Position numbers and translations under genes: made by a program
Part shown: piece after piece, positions 1 through 39,461 of the stretch
Position numbering within the stretch: position 1 is the first letter of the stretch
How the letters are laid out: each line of letters opens with the position of its first letter
Notes under the pieces: model-generated
The model's database searches: none
Seen by the model: the letters and a program-made list of their open reading frames with translations, nothing else
What the model was told of the DNA's origin: nothing
Virus record (IMG/VR): IMGVR_UViG_3300032235_000653
Coordinates: 1 to 64,000 of that record
Strand: one strand, 5' to 3'
From: a virus
DNA: 64,000 nucleotides

Positions 1-1
1 T

Positions 2-1228
2 ATAGCTGATACAAAGGCTCCTGCCAAACGCACACCGCAACAAACTGACTATGCTCGACGCAGAGCACAAGAGAAAAAAACAGAGCAAGGTATGGCGGAA
101 GGCTTGCCGCAGACTCTACGCAAAGTTGTTCCTGGATATGCCAAGCGTGAAATAGATAAGAAGATGGATGCTGGAAAGTTTGGTAAGACTGATGCGGATA
201 AAGATGCCAACTTCCAACGCTATAAAAAGATTCAAGACAAGATTAAAGAAGGCGATAAAAAGCCCCATCCAAAGACTTGGCATGATGTTGATCCAAAGTT
301 AGGTAAACAAGTTGATAAAATGAGTCAGGCAGAAAAAGTTAAAAAAGGTTTAGCACATCCTGACACATTGAAGAAGAAAGGTGTGGCGGAAGGTCAAGCA
401 GACCAAGTTAAAAAGATTGTTAAGAAGAACGGTAAGCCCGTTGGCGAAATTGGCACAGATCCCGAAGCAAGTCCAGGCAATGGTAATTGGTATGTAAAAC
501 ACTATGCGTCAGGGTATGATGTAGTAGGTTTTGATAATGCAGAAGAAGCATTAGCAGAATTAAAACATTGTATGAAGCAAGGTGTGGCGGAAGGAGTTAC
601 ACGATCTTTTGATCTACAATTGATTGAAATTCTCAAACAGCGTGGCTTCAAAGGTCCAATGGCTGTAGGTCGAGCTAAAAAATGGATACCAGCCGTTAAA
701 GAGGTTGCCGCTAATGGAAATTTTTCTATCGGTGCCGATGATATTATGATGGTATCTGGCACAGACCCTGACTATGATCCATGGGTATTATATGTGCCTA
801 AAGTTGGCAAATATATCTACAATGAAGGAATGGCTTACAATCTACTTACTGCTAAACAGGTAGTAAAGTTTACAGTGCCCACAGATGATAAAGATTTTTA
901 TGAAGGTGTGGCAGAAGACGATTCAGCACTACAAGCGTTTTTAAGTAAAGGTGGAAAGATTCAACAACTGCCATATAAAAAACCTCGCAAAGCAGACAAA
1001 ACTGATTACGGCAGTAAACATATTGGCGGTAGCGGTGATAAAATGAAAGCCAGTCGTACTGGTACTGCTGCTAAAACACAGGGTAACAAGGTAGCAGGAA
1101 TGGCGGAAGAACAAGTTACTGAAACATCAGCAGGCAGTGTCGCTGGCGTAGTTAACCCTACTCCAAAGAACAAAGCCAAAGTTGGTACATTGTTTGGTGG
1201 CACATACAAACAGAAAAAATCCAAATGA
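2..1228 (+). CDS. Modular G[VM]AE-repeat protein, probable capsid-internal polyprotein (5' partial)
   Basis: Frame is open from the window start (IADTKAPAKR...EQGMAEG); the ATG at 92 lies inside a repeat motif. Five G[VM]AE motifs separate unrelated 64-108 aa modules. Confidence 0.7.
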   Translation: MADTKAPAKRTPQQTDYARRRAQEKKTEQGMAEGLPQTLRKVVPGYAKREIDKKMDAGKFGKTDADKDANFQRYKKIQDKIKEGDKKPHPKTWHDVDPKLGKQVDKMSQAEKVKKGLAHPDTLKKKGVAEGQADQVKKIVKKNGKPVGEIGTDPEASPGNGNWYVKHYASGYDVVGFDNAEEALAELKHCMKQGVAEGVTRSFDLQLIEILKQRGFKGPMAVGRAKKWIPAVKEVAANGNFSIGADDIMMVSGTDPDYDPWVLYVPKVGKYIYNEGMAYNLLTAKQVVKFTVPTDDKDFYEGVAEDDSALQAFLSKGGKIQQLPYKKPRKADKTDYGSKHIGGSGDKMKASRTGTAAKTQGNKVAGMAEEQVTETSAGSVAGVVNPTPKNKAKVGTLFGGTYKQKKSK

Positions 1229-2607
1229 AAAGCCTGCGACAATTACTAGACAGCATCGATGGTGTATCGGAACAACGAACGGCAATGGATTCTGATCTAG
1301 CTAAGTATCGAGCGGGCTTAATATCTTTTAAAGATTTAAAAAAATCTGAAGAATTTAGACGCATGCCAATTGAAGACCGTTGGAAGCAGGGATTAATGTC
1401 AATGAACGATTTAACCCCCATGGACAAGTATCGACTGGGAATGATAAATCAGGATCAACTTGCTAGATCACAAGCTATAGAGCCAGTTTATCCGGAGTTG
1501 GCTGCGGCTGGCGCAGGCGGAGCAATAAGAGCAGGTTTAGGTTTATTAGGCAGAAAAGGTGCCGAAACTACGGCCAGACAAGCAGCTACTAAAGTAGAAC
1601 CTACATTTACTGCACCTGCAACACAAGCACCAAAACCAAGAATTGAACGCAGACCTGGCGAATCAGTATCAGATGCTATTAAAAGAGCACAAGCTGAAAA
1701 GGGGGGAGCAGTATCCACACCTCCGGCGGCCCAAGGGCCCGCCGTATGGCGTAATCCAAGAACTGGCGAAGTCGGCAGTACACCCCCCGGAGGCGGAGCT
1801 GGTGCTGGTGCTTCTTCTGGAACAAGAGTGTCGACTGCACCAAGTACACCCTCAGCACCAGCTAGACCAACAGCTCCTAGTTCTACTACCGGAGATAGAT
1901 TAAGACAAGGCCGACAAGAAAAAGTCAGTTCTGGGCGTACGGCCCAACAGGATTCAAAGGATCGTAAAAAAGCCCTCGCGGCCAGTTTGGCAGGCCATGC
2001 TGGATTGGCATACCTCTTAAGTCCCGACGATAAAGCAAAACCTGCAGGAGGAGGTGGCACAGATGGAACCGCTGGCAGTGGGCCACTGCCAGCGACAATA
2101 ATAGATGCTCCTCGAGATGGGGCTCCAGCATCAGCAGATGGACCTGGTAGGGATTCAAATATAAGATTGCCGCAAGTAAACATCGATACAAGTAACGTAC
2201 CTGCCCATCCAGAAAACGGAGGTCGGCCATCTATTAGAATTATACCGGTAGAACCAGCAGCACCAACAGCTCAGCCAGCAGCACCAACAGCTCAACCAGC
2301 AGCACCAACAGCTCAGCCAGCAGCTCAACCAGCAGCCCAACCTCCCAAAGTTGAACCTCCTAAAGCACCGGCAGCCCAACCAGTAGCACCTGCTAATGCG
2401 CCGTCTAGCGGTACAGGTGGTGGCCAAGGATCAGGCAGCGGAACTGGAACTGGAACTGGAACTGGATCAGGACAAGGCGATGATCGATTCGACCCAGTCG
2501 AATATTTAAAAAAACAAAAAGTACCAGGATATAAATTCAATGAAAGTCGCAGCACAAAAAAACTAATGCGAGAATTTAGTAGACATTTGAATAGGGTTTA
2601 TAAATGA
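1225..2607 (+). CDS. Pro/Ala/Gly-rich low-complexity protein, putative virion-internal protein
   Basis: 460 aa ORF with overlapping start/stop. PAAPTAQ and GT repeats, and an N-terminal MKSLRQLLDSIDGVSE leader. Confidence 0.65.
   Translation: MKSLRQLLDSIDGVSEQRTAMDSDLAKYRAGLISFKDLKKSEEFRRMPIEDRWKQGLMSMNDLTPMDKYRLGMINQDQLARSQAIEPVYPELAAAGAGGAIRAGLGLLGRKGAETTARQAATKVEPTFTAPATQAPKPRIERRPGESVSDAIKRAQAEKGGAVSTPPAAQGPAVWRNPRTGEVGSTPPGGGAGAGASSGTRVSTAPSTPSAPARPTAPSSTTGDRLRQGRQEKVSSGRTAQQDSKDRKKALAASLAGHAGLAYLLSPDDKAKPAGGGGTDGTAGSGPLPATIIDAPRDGAPASADGPGRDSNIRLPQVNIDTSNVPAHPENGGRPSIRIIPVEPAAPTAQPAAPTAQPAAPTAQPAAQPAAQPPKVEPPKAPAAQPVAPANAPSSGTGGGQGSGSGTGTGTGTGSGQGDDRFDPVEYLKKQKVPGYKFNESRSTKKLMREFSRHLNRVYK
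2254..2340 (+). repeat. 21-nt tandem coding repeat (PAAPTAQ x3 plus partial copies)
   Basis: ccagcagcaccaacagctcar repeated directly; a ggaact (GT) run follows at about 2440-2466. Confidence 0.9.
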
Positions 2608-5039
2608 GCGATATCAAAAAATTATTAGAAACAATGGATCGCATGTCTACCGTAGAGCGTAAACCCTCAGGCCCAAAATTTCCTGGCTATTGGAAAGGTA
2701 CGGATCCTGCCAGCAAAGCCAAAGATAAAATGGTGGGCGGCTGCGAAGAAAGCATAATTAAGGATTTGAATAAAATATCTAAAGAAAAAGTCACCGAATG
2801 GCAACTGCAAGAAAAATTTGATAAATTTAAAGAACAGCAAAGTTATACTGGTATAGATCCCACTGTTCGTCAACGTATGGGTATGCCGGCGGCCACAGCA
2901 GATGAGATAAGATCTTACATTGAAAAAAATCCACCGGCAATAAAAGCAGGGGACGGATATCTTACAACTAACACCGGCGTAGGACTTGACCCCAATAAAC
3001 CAGTTGTTCCTGAACCTGTTCTATCTGGTGGTCAATTGGATGTTATTCGTGCAGCAGCTAATGCTGCCGGAATAGGCCCTGACAAAAAAGTTGATTTAAC
3101 CTCTACGCCATCTGCAGTCCCAACAGCAGCAGCACCACCACCAATTAGTAGAAATGCTCCAGTAGGTAGTGCAGCTTTAGATCCTACATTAAATCCAGAC
3201 TCGGCAACTAGTATCCCCGGCGGTCAGAGCGCAGGCGGTGCAGGCGTAGTACCTACAAAATCAATATCTTCAATACCAATCAGATCGCGAAACCCTACGG
3301 CAGGCAGCTGGCAAGATATTTGGAAAAATAATCCTAACATTAAAAATCCTAATTTAATTTATCCAGGACAAGAAATTAAATTACCTAACGGAACATCCGC
3401 TATTGTCGACAAAGGTGATACTTTAAGCAGCATTGCTGATAGATATAAACAAGGCGGTTATAATACTGGAACAGAAGTCGGCCCAAGTAATACCAGTCCC
3501 GCACCTGCTACAACTAGAGCTCCGGCAACTGCACCTGCTGCTAGATCGGCACCTGCTGCATCAAGGCCGCAACCAAGAGCAGTACCGCCAACAAGTTTTG
3601 ATCCGCCCGGGCCTGACACTGACACTAGTGATCGACCAGTACCTGCGGTTAGGAATCAGCCTGCTGCTCCTGCCAATGCTGCAACACCCAGAACAGCGCA
3701 CACCCCAGGCACTCGTGTAACTACTCAAATCAGAGATCCGCAGGATCCTAATAAGCCTTTAAGTATTCAACTAAAGAAAGGCGATGATGGCAGTTGGTAC
3801 GATGATCGTGGCCGCAAACTTAATTTTAATAAACCTGGTGATTTAGAGAAATTGGAAAATTTACCAGCAGATGCTCCCACGTTTATGGATAAAATGAAAA
3901 GAGTGCTGGGAGGTGAACTACCGTCTAGGGCATTTGGACAACCTAAGCCTCAGCAAAATCAACCAGCACCGGCAACACAGCCGCCGGCCAGGCCTGCAAC
4001 TCAACCAGCAGCTCCAAGGTCTAATTCATCATCTTCAAAAACTGATCAGTCAGGCATGGCATCCTATGCAACAAAAGGTGGTAGAGTTTATGCAGCCGAC
4101 TTTAACAATCCCAGTGGGCTAGGCTGGGATGGCAAAGGAAAGTATACCAGTTATAAAACTCCCGAAGAAGGTGTTAATGCTACCAAAGATTTAGTTTCGC
4201 GATACTTAACTGATCGAACTCCATACATTAAAGGACCTGCCACTCCGGAACAAGTAGTCAGTACATGGGTAACTGGAGGCAAAACACCAGCTGATAAAAT
4301 TCAAGGCGGCAGATACCTTCAATCAGTTAAAGACGAGCTAGCGGCAGCTGGTGTTAAATTAGATGCTAAAGGAAGAATACCACATTCACAGGCTGCAACT
4401 GATGCTATTACAAGAGCCATCGTTCGTCACGAAACTTCTCCTAAGCACATGGAAAAGTTTGCACCTTTTCTAACTGCGCCAAAAGATGGAAAAGGGTCAA
4501 TTGAGGAATCAAACAAAGAAGATGAAAAAATTGCAGGGCGCTATGATCCTGATGAATTTGATCTTATGGTTAAACGATTAGGTCAAAGAGCTCGAGAACA
4601 AGATCGTAAGCATGGACCTGTTGATATTGCTGCACTGGCAAAAAGATTACGTGCAATAGAAAAACGTGAACAGACCAAAGAACAAGAAGATCCTGCTGTG
4701 AATATGCAGGATCCTGATGTACAAAGAACTAGTCAAACCAGTCCACAACAAGATCCTGCAGCAGTTAGACAACAACAGCTAGATCAAACGGTTGATCTAG
4801 CCACTGCTAAAGGCACTATGAGTGGATTAAAAACAGCATTAGGACCTGACGTAGATACAAATGCATTGGCCAGTGCTGTTACGAAAATAAGCGACGGCAA
4901 ACCTTTGACAGGCCCCGAATCGACGTCAATGAGTGCTCTTACACCTTTGATAAGTAAAGCAGCAGAGACTCCACAAACTGCCATGGCACTTAAAACAGCA
5001 TTGAGTAATGCTGGTATGTTGGCCAAGCAAGGAAAGTAA
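2604..5039 (+). CDS. Virion protein with LysM-like and lysozyme/transglycosylase-like segments
   Basis: WQDIWKNNPNIKNPNLIYPGQEIKLP...VDKGDTLSSIADRY (LysM halves). NNPSGL...YKTPEEG...AIVRHE resembles phage virion muramidase-like domains. Confidence 0.6.
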   Translation: MSDIKKLLETMDRMSTVERKPSGPKFPGYWKGTDPASKAKDKMVGGCEESIIKDLNKISKEKVTEWQLQEKFDKFKEQQSYTGIDPTVRQRMGMPAATADEIRSYIEKNPPAIKAGDGYLTTNTGVGLDPNKPVVPEPVLSGGQLDVIRAAANAAGIGPDKKVDLTSTPSAVPTAAAPPPISRNAPVGSAALDPTLNPDSATSIPGGQSAGGAGVVPTKSISSIPIRSRNPTAGSWQDIWKNNPNIKNPNLIYPGQEIKLPNGTSAIVDKGDTLSSIADRYKQGGYNTGTEVGPSNTSPAPATTRAPATAPAARSAPAASRPQPRAVPPTSFDPPGPDTDTSDRPVPAVRNQPAAPANAATPRTAHTPGTRVTTQIRDPQDPNKPLSIQLKKGDDGSWYDDRGRKLNFNKPGDLEKLENLPADAPTFMDKMKRVLGGELPSRAFGQPKPQQNQPAPATQPPARPATQPAAPRSNSSSSKTDQSGMASYATKGGRVYAADFNNPSGLGWDGKGKYTSYKTPEEGVNATKDLVSRYLTDRTPYIKGPATPEQVVSTWVTGGKTPADKIQGGRYLQSVKDELAAAGVKLDAKGRIPHSQAATDAITRAIVRHETSPKHMEKFAPFLTAPKDGKGSIEESNKEDEKIAGRYDPDEFDLMVKRLGQRAREQDRKHGPVDIAALAKRLRAIEKREQTKEQEDPAVNMQDPDVQRTSQTSPQQDPAAVRQQQLDQTVDLATAKGTMSGLKTALGPDVDTNALASAVTKISDGKPLTGPESTSMSALTPLISKAAETPQTAMALKTALSNAGMLAKQGK

Positions 5040-5041
5040 TT

Positions 5042-7120
5042 ATGAATTTGTTTGATATGTTTGAATCTGGAAAAAAGCAAGACATAGAAGAAGCTTGCTG
5101 GAAAGGCTACCACAAAGAGGGTATGAAGACTATGTTTGGGAAACGCTATCCCAACTGTGTTAAGAACAAAAACGAAAGTCTAGAAACCTATGTCAACAAA
5201 GGTGAGTGTCCAGGCTGTGGCGGTGCTATGGTGTCCGAAGAACAGATCAACGAAAAACAAGATGCTTGCTATCATAAAGTAAAATCAAGATATAAAGTAT
5301 GGCCCAGTGCTTATGCCAGTGGAGCACTAGTGCAGTGTCGCAAAAAAGGTGCTGCTAATTGGGGTAACAAAAATGAAAGTATTACTCAAGAAGAATACGA
5401 TCAACTGGATGAAAATTTAAAACAATGGTTCAGTGATAAGTGGGTTCGATTTGGTCCTGACGGTAAGATTCGTGGGGATTGTGCCAGAGGTGATAGCAGT
5501 GAAGGTAAACCAAAATGCTTGCCACAGAGCAAAGCACACGCTTTAGGCAAAAAAGGTCGAGCCAGTGCTGCCGCACGTAAACGTAGAGAAGATCCTAATC
5601 CAGAACGTAGTGGCAAGGCCATTAATGTTGCCACTAAGAAAAAGAGTAATGAAGGTATGGCGGAAGGCTCTTTGGCAGAAATGGACAAAAGTGCTCCACA
5701 GCCTGGTCGTGATGGTAACGTTAGCCATAAAACTTACGGCAGTCGTGACAACTACAAACTAGGTGACCCAGAAAGAACGGGAAAGCAAATATCTGCAAAA
5801 AAAGCCAAAAAAGATGCACTTGACATTTTGAAGAAGCAAGGTGTGGCGGAAGAAAGAAATAAACAAGGCTATCATACCAGAGTACAAAAAGGCAAGTTCT
5901 TGCCTAGCAAATACGGTGAAGATCAATATAACTACTTACATGACCTAATGAACTCAAGTTATGATGGCGAAGGTCCAGTTTTGGTAACCATTGATGATAA
6001 AAAGATTGCTAGAGAAATTGCTGCCATGTACGGTGGAGATGTAGAACAAACTGGACTAGGAACATATCGTATCGTTCAAAGAAAAGGCGCTGCGCCAATT
6101 GGTAACAAGACTCCTGAACTAACTGGTGTGGCGGAAGGATTTGATGATGTTGTTAAGGGCGTAAAGCGTTTGGTAAAAGGTAAACCATCTAAGGGCGATG
6201 TTGCTATGAAACACACACTCAAAGCTTTAGGAGCAGCACAAGCTGGTGATATGAAAACAGCAGGCAAAGAAGCTACAAGATGGGAAAAAGTACAGAACTT
6301 GCCTAAGAAAGATGTGGCGGAAAGCTCGAACAAAAAACAAGAAGCAACACGCAGAATACAGAAAATGTTAAATGATAAGTTCGGTGCCAATTTAGATGTC
6401 GACGGAGTATTAGGACCACTTACACTTAAATCTATCAATAAATTTATGCCCAACGCAAAAGTCGGACCAGCGGAAGATCCAAATAAAACTACTGCTGTAC
6501 AGGGCAAAAAAGTTAAAAACGAAGACACAGATCAGAATCAATTAGCAGAAAAATGGAGTCAAAAATACAAAAGCAGTATTAATTGCAGTGACCCAAAAGG
6601 GTTTAGTCAGCGTGCTCATTGTGACGGAAAAAAGAAAAATGAAGACGTGGCTGAAACAGCAGAATATAACTATAACTATAGCAATATCAATGACGATGAC
6701 TGGTATGAATTTGATTCTGAAGGCAATGTAGTAAGACAATCTGGACCAAGAAGATACGAACTTCCTTTTGGTTCTAACAAAACAATTAAGTTACCTAATG
6801 GAAATATTGCAGCCAAAGGAATGACTGCTAAACGTTTAAAATTGTTTAAAAATCTGTCAGAAAGCCGGGAATATTATAATGTTACCAGCACTGACTCTAC
6901 ATCTTTACGCCAAGATTTTAACATGTCTAAAGATCGCTTCGGATGGTATCTCAGTGAAGGATCTACTCCAAAACATAAACTAGACGCATACAGAGCATTC
7001 GGTAGTCCCAAATTAAAAGAATACGATCTATCTGCATTCAGTGGTGGTACGCAGACCAAAGGTGAAGATAACGTTATTAGTCCTGTCGGATCTCAAACTA
7101 AATCGCAATACAAAAAATGA
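5042..7120 (+). CDS. Modular G[VM]AE-repeat protein with Cys-containing mini-domains and a peptidoglycan-binding-like module
   Basis: Five G/D[VM]AE motifs. Modules include ACWKGY..PNCVK, DACYHKVKSRYKVWPSAYASGALVQCRK, and IQKMLN..LDVDGVLGPLT (PG_binding_1-like). Confidence 0.7.
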   Translation: MNLFDMFESGKKQDIEEACWKGYHKEGMKTMFGKRYPNCVKNKNESLETYVNKGECPGCGGAMVSEEQINEKQDACYHKVKSRYKVWPSAYASGALVQCRKKGAANWGNKNESITQEEYDQLDENLKQWFSDKWVRFGPDGKIRGDCARGDSSEGKPKCLPQSKAHALGKKGRASAAARKRREDPNPERSGKAINVATKKKSNEGMAEGSLAEMDKSAPQPGRDGNVSHKTYGSRDNYKLGDPERTGKQISAKKAKKDALDILKKQGVAEERNKQGYHTRVQKGKFLPSKYGEDQYNYLHDLMNSSYDGEGPVLVTIDDKKIAREIAAMYGGDVEQTGLGTYRIVQRKGAAPIGNKTPELTGVAEGFDDVVKGVKRLVKGKPSKGDVAMKHTLKALGAAQAGDMKTAGKEATRWEKVQNLPKKDVAESSNKKQEATRRIQKMLNDKFGANLDVDGVLGPLTLKSINKFMPNAKVGPAEDPNKTTAVQGKKVKNEDTDQNQLAEKWSQKYKSSINCSDPKGFSQRAHCDGKKKNEDVAETAEYNYNYSNINDDDWYEFDSEGNVVRQSGPRRYELPFGSNKTIKLPNGNIAAKGMTAKRLKLFKNLSESREYYNVTSTDSTSLRQDFNMSKDRFGWYLSEGSTPKHKLDAYRAFGSPKLKEYDLSAFSGGTQTKGEDNVISPVGSQTKSQYKK

Positions 7121-7545
7121 GAAATTTAATTAATATTATGGAATCAGCTAGCAAAGGATGTCCTATTGCCACGCACGACATCGATGTTAATTTAAAAAAC
7201 AGACAGGCTGCTATAGATAACTACAATTATGGGCCAGCCAATCCTGATAAGCCCGGCGATTATTGGGATAAGTCTGCTAAAATTTTTAATGTAACTACAG
7301 CTACAGCAAAAACTATGACCTGTGGCAATTGTGCAGCATTTGATGTCAGTGATAGCATGAGACAATGTATGTCGGACGGTATTAAAGGCACAGAAAAAAA
7401 TATAGATGCAAATGCCAGTATCAATTTAGCTGATTTGGGTTACTGTAATTTTTTACATTTTAAATGTGCGGGCAGCAGAAGTTGTAAAGCTTGGGTCACT
7501 GGTGGTCCTATAACAGAAAAAGACAAAGGAAAAAAGGCAGATTAA
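7117..7545 (+). CDS. Hypothetical Cys-rich protein (CGNC...C..C...C), possible metal binding
   Basis: 142 aa ORF with N-terminal MRNLINIMES leader. Confidence 0.6.
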   Translation: MRNLINIMESASKGCPIATHDIDVNLKNRQAAIDNYNYGPANPDKPGDYWDKSAKIFNVTTATAKTMTCGNCAAFDVSDSMRQCMSDGIKGTEKNIDANASINLADLGYCNFLHFKCAGSRSCKAWVTGGPITEKDKGKKAD

Positions 7546-38997: not shown

Positions 38998-39461
38998 AGA
39001 AAATCTTTTACGAAAAGCAGGGTCGAAAATACGTTCCTGTATACGAGTATGATCAAAATCTACTAGATGCCTTTCCCAAGGGCACACACATTGTTATGTG
39101 TTATCCAGGTGGGCAAAGTCGCAGATACAACATCGACCCCAACTATGCTGCATTAATTGCTGCCGGGCGTGTGGCAGAAGAGGCCATGACGAAAGCTATT
39201 CGCGAAGCCAGTGAGATGCGGCCCCAACGAGCAATGCTGACTGAAGGTCAGCACAAGGCATGGAAAAAATTGGCAAAAGAATTTGGGGACGATTTGGCCA
39301 CACTGAGCATTAAAAGCGCACATGATATTGCCGAAGCTGGATTGGCTGCTCTCAATGAAGAAGCCGATAAACTGATGAAAAACGCAAGTGTGCGCGAAGC
39401 TTATAATCAGTTCATTATGATGTGTGAACTTTGTAAAGAACACGATGCTGAAGTACGGTGA
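38994..39461 (+). CDS. Hypothetical phage protein
   Basis: 155 aa; coupled start. Confidence 0.65.
   Translation: MKKIFYEKQGRKYVPVYEYDQNLLDAFPKGTHIVMCYPGGQSRRYNIDPNYAALIAAGRVAEEAMTKAIREASEMRPQRAMLTEGQHKAWKKLAKEFGDDLATLSIKSAHDIAEAGLAALNEEADKLMKNASVREAYNQFIMMCELCKEHDAEVR

Follow-up and report, generated by a model that had tools for sequence, protein, structure and literature searches.

Two genes at the start of a viral contig raise the question of why a short sequence that joins otherwise unrelated protein modules should be kept constant down to its silent positions. The stretch that was analysed, called the window below, is the first 64 kb of a 99.8-kb contig of IMG/VR (record IMGVR_UViG_3300032235_000653), and its base 1 is base 1 of the contig, within gene 1 (2..1228). 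Bases 1-7545 hold five abutting, co-oriented genes in an operon-like run, and in two of them, the cassette polyprotein genes 1 and 2 (2..1228 and 5042..7120), modules are joined in frame by a recurring linker, G/D-[V/M]-A-E. The contig, rated 28% complete, encodes a family-B DNA polymerase whose nearest relatives, at 42-52% identity, are those of giant myophages such as Phosso, Atu_ph07 and GAP32, and most sequencing runs that contain parts of the window are lake and freshwater metagenomes. We conclude that the two genes probably encode cargo polyproteins of a giant T4-type myophage, in which the linker would act both as the joint at which modules are exchanged and as a site for the prohead protease.

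Codons and breakpoints at the linker

A first-pass annotation of this DNA had reported ten in-frame linker copies, separating modules of 97, 67, 108 and 64 amino acids (aa) in gene 1 and of 62, 95, 62 and 111 aa in gene 2. All ten copies were present where it placed them, the module lengths were reproduced, and the match that it described between 361-392 and 5821-5852, one copy from each gene, was indeed 29 of 32 nucleotides (nt). The Val or Met codons of the linkers start at 92, 383, 584, 908 and 1100 in gene 1 and at 5657, 5843, 6128, 6314 and 6647 in gene 2. A search with a 13-nt pattern, allowing up to two mismatches, gave 10 matches against 1.05 expected, a number that none of 100 shuffled sequences reached. 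Nine of these matches were linkers and the tenth, at 39168, was probably due to chance; the linker at 6647 deviates too far from the pattern for this search to detect it. An additional, decayed copy lies at 239..262, where a variant contig from a lake metagenome bears an intact linker just before 248, and on sequence comparison it looks like the product of a 15-nt in-frame loss.

The same annotation had held that codon use in the motif is unusual, and this proved to be the case. Val is encoded by GTG in seven of seven copies, the only alternative to Val being ATG (Met, three copies), and Ala is encoded by GCG in 8 of 10. Elsewhere in the contig, Val is encoded by GTG in 14.8% of cases (binomial P = 1.6e-6) and Ala by GCG in 7.1% (P = 2.6e-8). 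The fixed codons were not a property of the tripeptide in general: L-A-E triplets within both cassette genes were encoded with GCA, V/M-A-E triplets elsewhere in the contig used GCG in 0 of 8 cases, and in two relatives the [VMLIF]-A-E triplets of head genes had GCG in 2 of 27 cases and GTG for Val in none. No tRNA gene able to read GCG or GTG was found in the window.

We collected relatives from IMG/VR by means of peptides that lie inside the modules, which yielded 55 loci. Most of them carried the DNA motif, always on the coding strand. The consensus of 105 copies in unique contexts was GAG CAA GGT GTG GCG GAA GGC, encoding E-Q-G-V-A-E-G, with GTG in 87/93, GCG in 91/105, GGT in 90/98 and CAA in 72/105; outside the linker, the linker-bearing open reading frames (ORFs) used GTG for 17.5% and GCG for 6.8%. 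Between loci, codon identity at identical residues was 85-95% in linkers vs 67-78% in homologous modules, and linkers whose flanks were unrelated on both sides had a median of 17 exact nt in common. With the 17-mer alone, at least 120 additional stretches of viral contigs were found. The G+C content of the linker is 65%, vs 38% for the genome. In a complete relative of 352 kb, all six copies lie in one gene cluster; in another of 400 kb, four of seven copies lie in one cluster, and each of the three outliers carries a mismatch.

The first-pass annotation had also proposed that the repeat may be a recombination joint. Comparison of orthologs supported this: in relatives, module gain, loss and reordering break at the repeat, the breakpoints coinciding with the linker as the end points of exchanged segments do with the promoter-early stem-loops (PeSLs) of T4-type phages. 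The 55-aa and 67-aa modules were near-identical across many loci, and beyond (E/K)Q·GVAE(G) the sequences on both sides were unrelated, with module junctions in relatives that were seamless and of constant length. An enlarged set comprised 183 ORFs with 456 linkers, and its 639 modules fall into 475 families; the most frequent family had 14 copies, flanked on the left by 13 different neighbours and on the right by 10. Relatives had up to nine linkers per ORF, and gene 1 consists of six segments and gene 2 of at least six.

The positions of the breaks could be counted. For 76 unique blastn match ends in both genes, 37% fell within 15 nt of a linker, compared with a random expectation of 9.4% and a maximum of 22% in 10,000 draws, and the remaining ends lay mostly at degenerate K-N-E-S-x-x-E joints or at the decayed linker near 248. 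Contigs from four lake metagenomes diverged from the window at 82/84, 106, 576, 594, 5668, 5852/5858 and 6309/6313, and three lake contigs lacked 5852-6309 while both flanks were present. The joints 594 to 5831 and 5360 to 6591, with short sides of 20 and 28 nt, were not used. When 1.84 billion protein representatives were searched, 662 clusters (50% identity) matched gene 1 one module at a time, their matches ending near residues 25-29, 83-85, 118-128, 198-205 and 300-306; the cluster proteins were 144-1648 aa long, and the gene 1 modules stood at very different positions in them. One of the proteins compared, P0004, has one module and the C-terminal tail in common with gene 1, and other modules between the same joints. 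These data support, at the level of sequence, the reading of the linker as a recombination joint for modules.

Gene 1 is cut by the contig end, and P0003, a full-length protein of 731 aa with the leader MKSEHFLKE, is 99% identical to it. In P0003 the 55-aa module occurs twice, with another module between the copies, and in the window it occurs once. Read depth in the source run was about 36 at window positions 1-262 vs 13 elsewhere, about three times higher, and the first ~250 nt of the window run through the module that is duplicated in P0003. The left end of the contig (1-262) may thus be a collapsed repeat rather than a real cassette deletion.

The mechanism of exchange is more likely to be short-homology recombination than the integron-like one that the first-pass annotation had suggested. 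The integron-like mechanism was rejected as unsupported because neither a tyrosine recombinase (PF00589; controls 14/14) nor a serine recombinase (PF00239) was matched in the window's own contig or in the two complete relatives, because the linker is not palindromic, as an attC-type inverted repeat would be, and because no reverse-strand copies occur in the window or the 55 loci. Both complete relatives encode a RecA/UvsX homologue. Joints leading back upon themselves, a sign of circles, were not found in the assembled contigs.

We propose that the DNA form of about 17 nt, A CAA GGT GTG GCG GAA GG, which appears identical between otherwise unrelated junctions, is the spot at which modules would, with the frame kept, be swapped, copied or lost, not only between genes but also between phages infecting the same cell. 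The general recombination of the phage, or template switching on the short GC-rich homology, would suffice, and a dedicated recombinase would not be needed. Recombination itself does not repair mutations, and the fixed silent positions therefore need selection. They might be fixed in the way that the terminal repeats of mobile elements are: cassettes with a mutated joint would leave the exchange pool and freeze, and those with intact joints would keep spreading.

The linker as a candidate protease site and the rival explanations

It is plausible, as far as sequence can tell, that the linker also serves as a protease site that releases capsid-packaged modules. V-A-E and M-A-E fit the rule of T4-type prohead proteases, all of which cut after Glu (PMC5694885), and resemble I-A-E, at which internal proteins are cut in T4, whose capsid-targeting sequence MKTYQEFIAE is cut next to it (PMC8442874). 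Leaders ending in aliphatic-x-Glu were found at the start of gene 2 (MNLFDMFE), in similar form in the genes starting at 2604 and 7117, and in P0003. In relatives, where MRAQEFITE, MRAHEFIVE and MKANEFITE are examples, such leaders stood at 55 of 118 modular ORF starts vs 4 of 75 control ORFs (P=1e-10). A prohead protease of the gp21 family (PF03420) was present in both complete linker-bearing relatives (E values of 9e-28 and 4e-26), and had no match in the window's 99.8-kb contig, which is 28% complete. The gp23 capsid protein is also encoded by the complete relatives, with L-A-E just ahead of a mature-like N-terminus.

Other indirect hints come from the modules themselves. An AlphaFold model of the 67-aa module gave four strands and a helix with a predicted local distance difference test score (pLDDT) of 74, and below 50 at both linker ends. 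The small Cys modules at the N-terminus of gene 2 (DUF5872, phrog_727) recur, reordered, in T4-like cyanophage proteins, and these homologues are annotated as 'structural protein' in S-E7 and 'virion protein' in S-SCSM1, a phage whose virion proteins were identified by mass spectrometry (PMC9602691). Between linkers in relatives we found GNAT, GH19, deaminase, ParB_N, NT5C and cytidylyltransferase modules. Scans with Pfam and PHROG found no internal-protein or Alt family that would point to homology with T4 IPI, IPII, IPIII or Alt.

Taken together, we propose that each polyprotein would be a chain of small, independently folding modules of ~50-110 aa, some of them enzyme-sized in relatives, joined by the linker (E/K)-Q-G-[V/M]-A-E-G. 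The N-terminal T4-like capsid-targeting leader would carry the polyprotein into the prohead, where the prohead protease would remove the leader and then cut after the Glu of every linker, the aliphatic-x-Glu being its site. Once freed, the modules would stay inside the capsid and pass into the host together with the DNA, to act there as early effectors like T4 IPI and Alt. A bolder version, which we regard as possible but rather doubtful, makes the linker a self-maintaining in-frame joint whose rare GC-rich codons are kept for mobility, possibly moving cassettes as excised circles in the manner of PeSLs; a clade of giant lake phages would thereby share a reshuffled pool of injected mini-effectors, and the same residues would ensure correct cutting by the head protease. 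If true, this would be a protein-level analogue of an integron without an integrase.

Other explanations of the fixed linker were weighed against this reading of a joint and cleavage site in one. The linker could matter as a peptide only, its role being that of a protease site or of a flexible spacer; only recombinants joined at domain boundaries would then survive, and the copies would be identical in DNA as a side effect of having spread recently or of converting one another. Conservation of Q(-1) and G(+1), as in a peptide recognition motif, speaks for this, as do the disordered linker ends in the model and the breaks at degenerate linkers whose DNA is not fixed. However, rare synonymous codons, which selection on a peptide is unable to fix, are constant over ~100 junctions with unrelated flanks, vs 22-33% codon changes in homologous modules, the same tripeptide elsewhere has ordinary codons, and the junctions are seamless and of constant length; we consider the peptide-only explanation unlikely. 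An RNA-level signal, such as a Shine-Dalgarno-like AGGUG pause, a rare-codon folding pause or an RNase site, could draw on the AGGUG within the linker and on GCG being the rarest Ala codon. Yet GGT, CAA and GAA are common, and GTC, not GTG, is the rarest Val codon, so that GCG alone is the rarest of its codon set and a rare-codon pause was discarded; there is no complementary copy with which a structure could form, and the location of the exchange breakpoints is left unexplained. We judge an RNA signal to be improbable.

That GTG and ATG are internal start codons, from which the modules would also be translated singly, would account for Met being the sole substitute for Val, and both are bacterial start codons preceded here by the purine-rich GAG CAA GG. 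This idea was nevertheless rejected as very improbable on the ground that the linkers are unlike real gene starts: of the 37 trusted gene starts examined in the window every one is ATG and none reads ATG GCG GAA, and where a ribosome-binding site (AAGGA/GGAG) is recognisable it lies 5-8 nt upstream in an A/T-rich leader, whereas the AAGG of the linker ends 1-2 nt ahead of the codon. A change of GTG to ATG is, besides, a mere transition between two hydrophobic residues at the P3 position. Least probable of all is a dedicated site-specific enzyme, integron-like or a nuclease, that moves the cassettes, perhaps as circles. In its favour, the repeat has sharp limits and keeps to one strand and to a single gene cluster in each genome, and the mini-circles of PeSLs in T4-type phages offer a precedent, though one that works by homologous exchange (PMC2839356). 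On the other side stand the absence of tyrosine and serine recombinases from the two complete relatives, the non-palindromic linker, and the lack of a conserved neighbouring enzyme gene in the loci inspected and of back-joints in the contigs.

Several points count against our own interpretation of the linker as joint and cleavage site. For homologous recombination of the UvsX type, 17 shared nt are few, and selection acting on random recombinants would likewise leave breaks at domain boundaries. No recombination intermediate or circle was seen in the contigs, which were the only material for this; the exchange pattern is read from the junctions, and its mechanism is what we infer from them. 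A second set of loci was gathered by the DNA motif itself and is biased to canonical copies, and the codon statistics relied on are those of the first set, found by module peptides. Cleavage, packaging and injection of the cassette proteins are likewise inferred from sequence, the window's contig, at its 28% completeness, has neither a protease nor a capsid gene, so that both were taken from relatives, and the modules gave no fold match or family match.

Further features of the relatives touch on processing and expression. The gene 1 tail resembles the sequence after several leaders (IIE·TTTAGSVA) and the AE·SSAGTT of the capsid protein, a likeness that may reflect a shared P1' context of the protease. 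In the 352-kb relative a cytidylyltransferase/NMNAT-like domain is fused to linker-joined modules (L047:1984-4128), and in cyanophage P-TIM68 such a domain lies directly upstream of the modular protein (L009:654-4892); virions of cyanophages have repeatedly proved to contain NMNAT-like proteins (PMC9602691). The 400-kb relative encodes, upstream of the portal gene, a 1019-aa protein (L072:195-3254) of tandem acidic repeats with F-A-E-D and Y-V-A-E-A motifs in ordinary codons, which may be a further protease substrate. The sequence ATAAATA, mostly as GATAAATA(C/A)T, was found within 70 nt upstream of 23 of 120 modular ORF starts vs 0.6% of background windows, and also precedes a structural gene adjoining the capsid gene of the 352-kb relative (L047:7360-7406); it may be a variant T4-type late promoter. 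The exact T4 late promoter TATAAATA was found upstream of only 4 of 122 modular ORFs.

Gene run and module identity

Features of the window in and around the two cassette genes
Feature	Position	Strand	Remarks
Cassette polyprotein gene 1	2..1228	+	5' end truncated by contig end; five linkers; conserved tail
Linker 1, G-M-A-E (GGT ATG GCG GAA)	89..100	+	homology breaks at 77-98; contig loose ends at 82/84/106
Decayed linker, K-I-K-E-G·D-K-K	239..262	+	KEQ-GVAE-G in relatives; breaks at 241-262
Linker 2, G-V-A-E	380..391	+	opens the 67-aa module, the most frequent module family in relatives
Linker 3, G-V-A-E	581..592	+	breaks at 591-598; loose ends at 576/594
Linker 4, G-V-A-E, GCA variant	905..916	+	
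Linker 5, G-M-A-E, GGA variant	1097..1108	+	
Gene 1 tail	1118-1228	+	E·TSAGSVAGVV...GTLFGGTYKQKK; also kept in protein P0004
Pro/Ala-rich low-complexity protein	1225..2607	+	N-terminal leader MKSLRQLLDS...; without linkers
811-aa protein	2604..5039	+	leader MSDIKKLLE; LysM domain; without linkers
Cassette polyprotein gene 2, 692 aa	5042..7120	+	leader MNLFDMFE; small Cys modules; five linkers
N-terminal leader like the T4 capsid-targeting sequence, ending M-F-E	5042..5065	+	gene 2
Degenerate linker, N-K-N-E-S-L-E	5165..5185	+	homology breaks cluster here too
Degenerate linker, N-K-N-E-S-I-T-Q-E	5366..5392	+	homology breaks cluster here too
Linker 6, G-M-A-E	5654..5665	+	contig ends at 5668
Linker 7, G-V-A-E	5840..5851	+	loose ends at 5852/5858
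Linker 8, G-V-A-E	6125..6136	+	
Linker 9, D-V-A-E	6311..6322	+	loose ends at 6309/6313 in three runs
Linker 10, D-V-A-E, GCT variant	6644..6655	+	
142-aa protein	7117..7545	+	leader MRNLINIME; final gene of the leader-bearing run

The gene for the Pro/Ala-rich protein showed in-frame length variants in other lake samples, at 1608/1609, 2058 and 2317, consisting of a 33-nt insertion (three runs) and 9-nt insertions.

Searches of Pfam, PHROGs and NCBIfam with the two cassette genes of the window returned only DUF5872, phrog_727 and sub-threshold matches to the SutA RNA-polymerase-binding domain and to a muramidase. The SutA match (E value of 0.003, below the cut-off) covers 926-973, ALQAFLSKGGKIQQLP. 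In the module after linker 9, the stretch 6383-6424, GANLDVDGVLGPLT, looks like a peptidoglycan-binding motif of the PG_binding_1 type, and its sole search match was the sub-threshold muramidase (E value of 0.018). A Foldseek search of the PDB with the model of the 67-aa module gave nothing below an E value of 0.5, for the 55-aa and 108-aa modules the protein atlas yielded nothing of use, and a PDB sequence search with the C-terminal part of gene 3 gave only a weak lectin-repeat match. Among cultured phages, no tblastn match to gene 1 was found in 50,697 phage records. The cyanophage homologues are mosaics of the same small modules as gene 2; the DNA linker was not present in them, and their joints are K-K-E-E-V-like and of low complexity.

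Comparison with known systems

Integrons are arrays of exchangeable cassettes bounded by a repeated site, with the integrase IntI, an attC hairpin and promoterless genes. Unlike in an integron, IntI was not found here, an attC hairpin is lacking, and each cassette is a protein module in frame. If our reading of the linker as joint and cleavage site is true, one short sequence would provide the reading frame, the homology for exchange and the processing signal, which would make domain shuffling in a virus safe and frequent, given that any order of modules would still yield correctly released products. This would explain the diversity of the modules (475 families among 639) and would provide a testable case of Botstein-type linker sequences inside genes. 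Hundreds of small proteins of abundant freshwater giant phages would become candidate injected effectors or anti-defence factors, and the linker could guide the design of T4-type capsids that carry several cargo proteins.

No publication was found in the literature searched that pairs GVAEG with a phage or describes such a cassette joint. Papers on head proteolysis in giant phages, among them PMC5694885, describe processing at multiple sites, without cassette arrays, and the paper on polyvalent proteins does not mention linkers or shuffling joints (PMC5512222). The nearest known systems are the internal proteins of T4, the PeSLs, the glycine-rich motifs of gp38 and the polyvalent proteins.

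Like T4 IPI, IPII, IPIII and Alt, the cassette polyproteins begin with a short leader resembling MKTYQEFIAE and contain an aliphatic-x-Glu site (PMC8442874, PMC9958956, PMC5694885), and the role of the T4 proteins, which are carried in the head and injected, is the one that we would assign to them. The T4 internal proteins are single proteins cut once, whereas here up to ten or more unrelated modules stand in a chain, the repeated internal site is fixed in its DNA, and there is no sequence homology.

The PeSLs (Arbiol et al. 2010, PMC2839356) are similar in that a short DNA repeat flanks non-essential cassettes, in that the repeat marks the end points of indels and replacements between related phages, and in that the exchange would rely on recombination functions of the phage itself. 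A PeSL lies between genes, consists of an early promoter and a terminator stem-loop, and moves whole genes; the linker, unlike it, is coding, in frame, ~17 nt long and without a hairpin, and moves modules inside a gene. Mini-circles are a feature of PeSLs (PMC2839356), whereas the linker cassettes are known from assembled contigs, where there are no back-joints. In the gp38 adhesins of T-even phages, in-frame glycine-rich motifs likewise separate interchangeable segments (Trojet et al. 2011, PMC3157838). There the motifs build one structural core of a single domain and the segments are loops, whereas here the linker is flexible and joins whole unrelated domains.

Polyvalent proteins (Iyer et al. 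2017, PMC5512222) also combine many unrelated domains in one polypeptide, and the cassette genes fall within the range of two to fifteen unrelated domains per polypeptide given for them. It has been suggested that they accompany the DNA and that proteolysis sets them free (PMC5512222). The conflict domains typical of them include ParB-like, lysozyme, peptidase and methylase domains; ParB_N, lysozyme-type and acetyltransferase domains occur in the relatives, and in the window's two genes there are only DUF5872 and the sub-threshold matches. For polyvalent proteins, autoprocessing by a built-in metallopeptidase was proposed, whereas the cassette polyproteins consist mostly of tiny modules of no known family, held together by one fixed joint.

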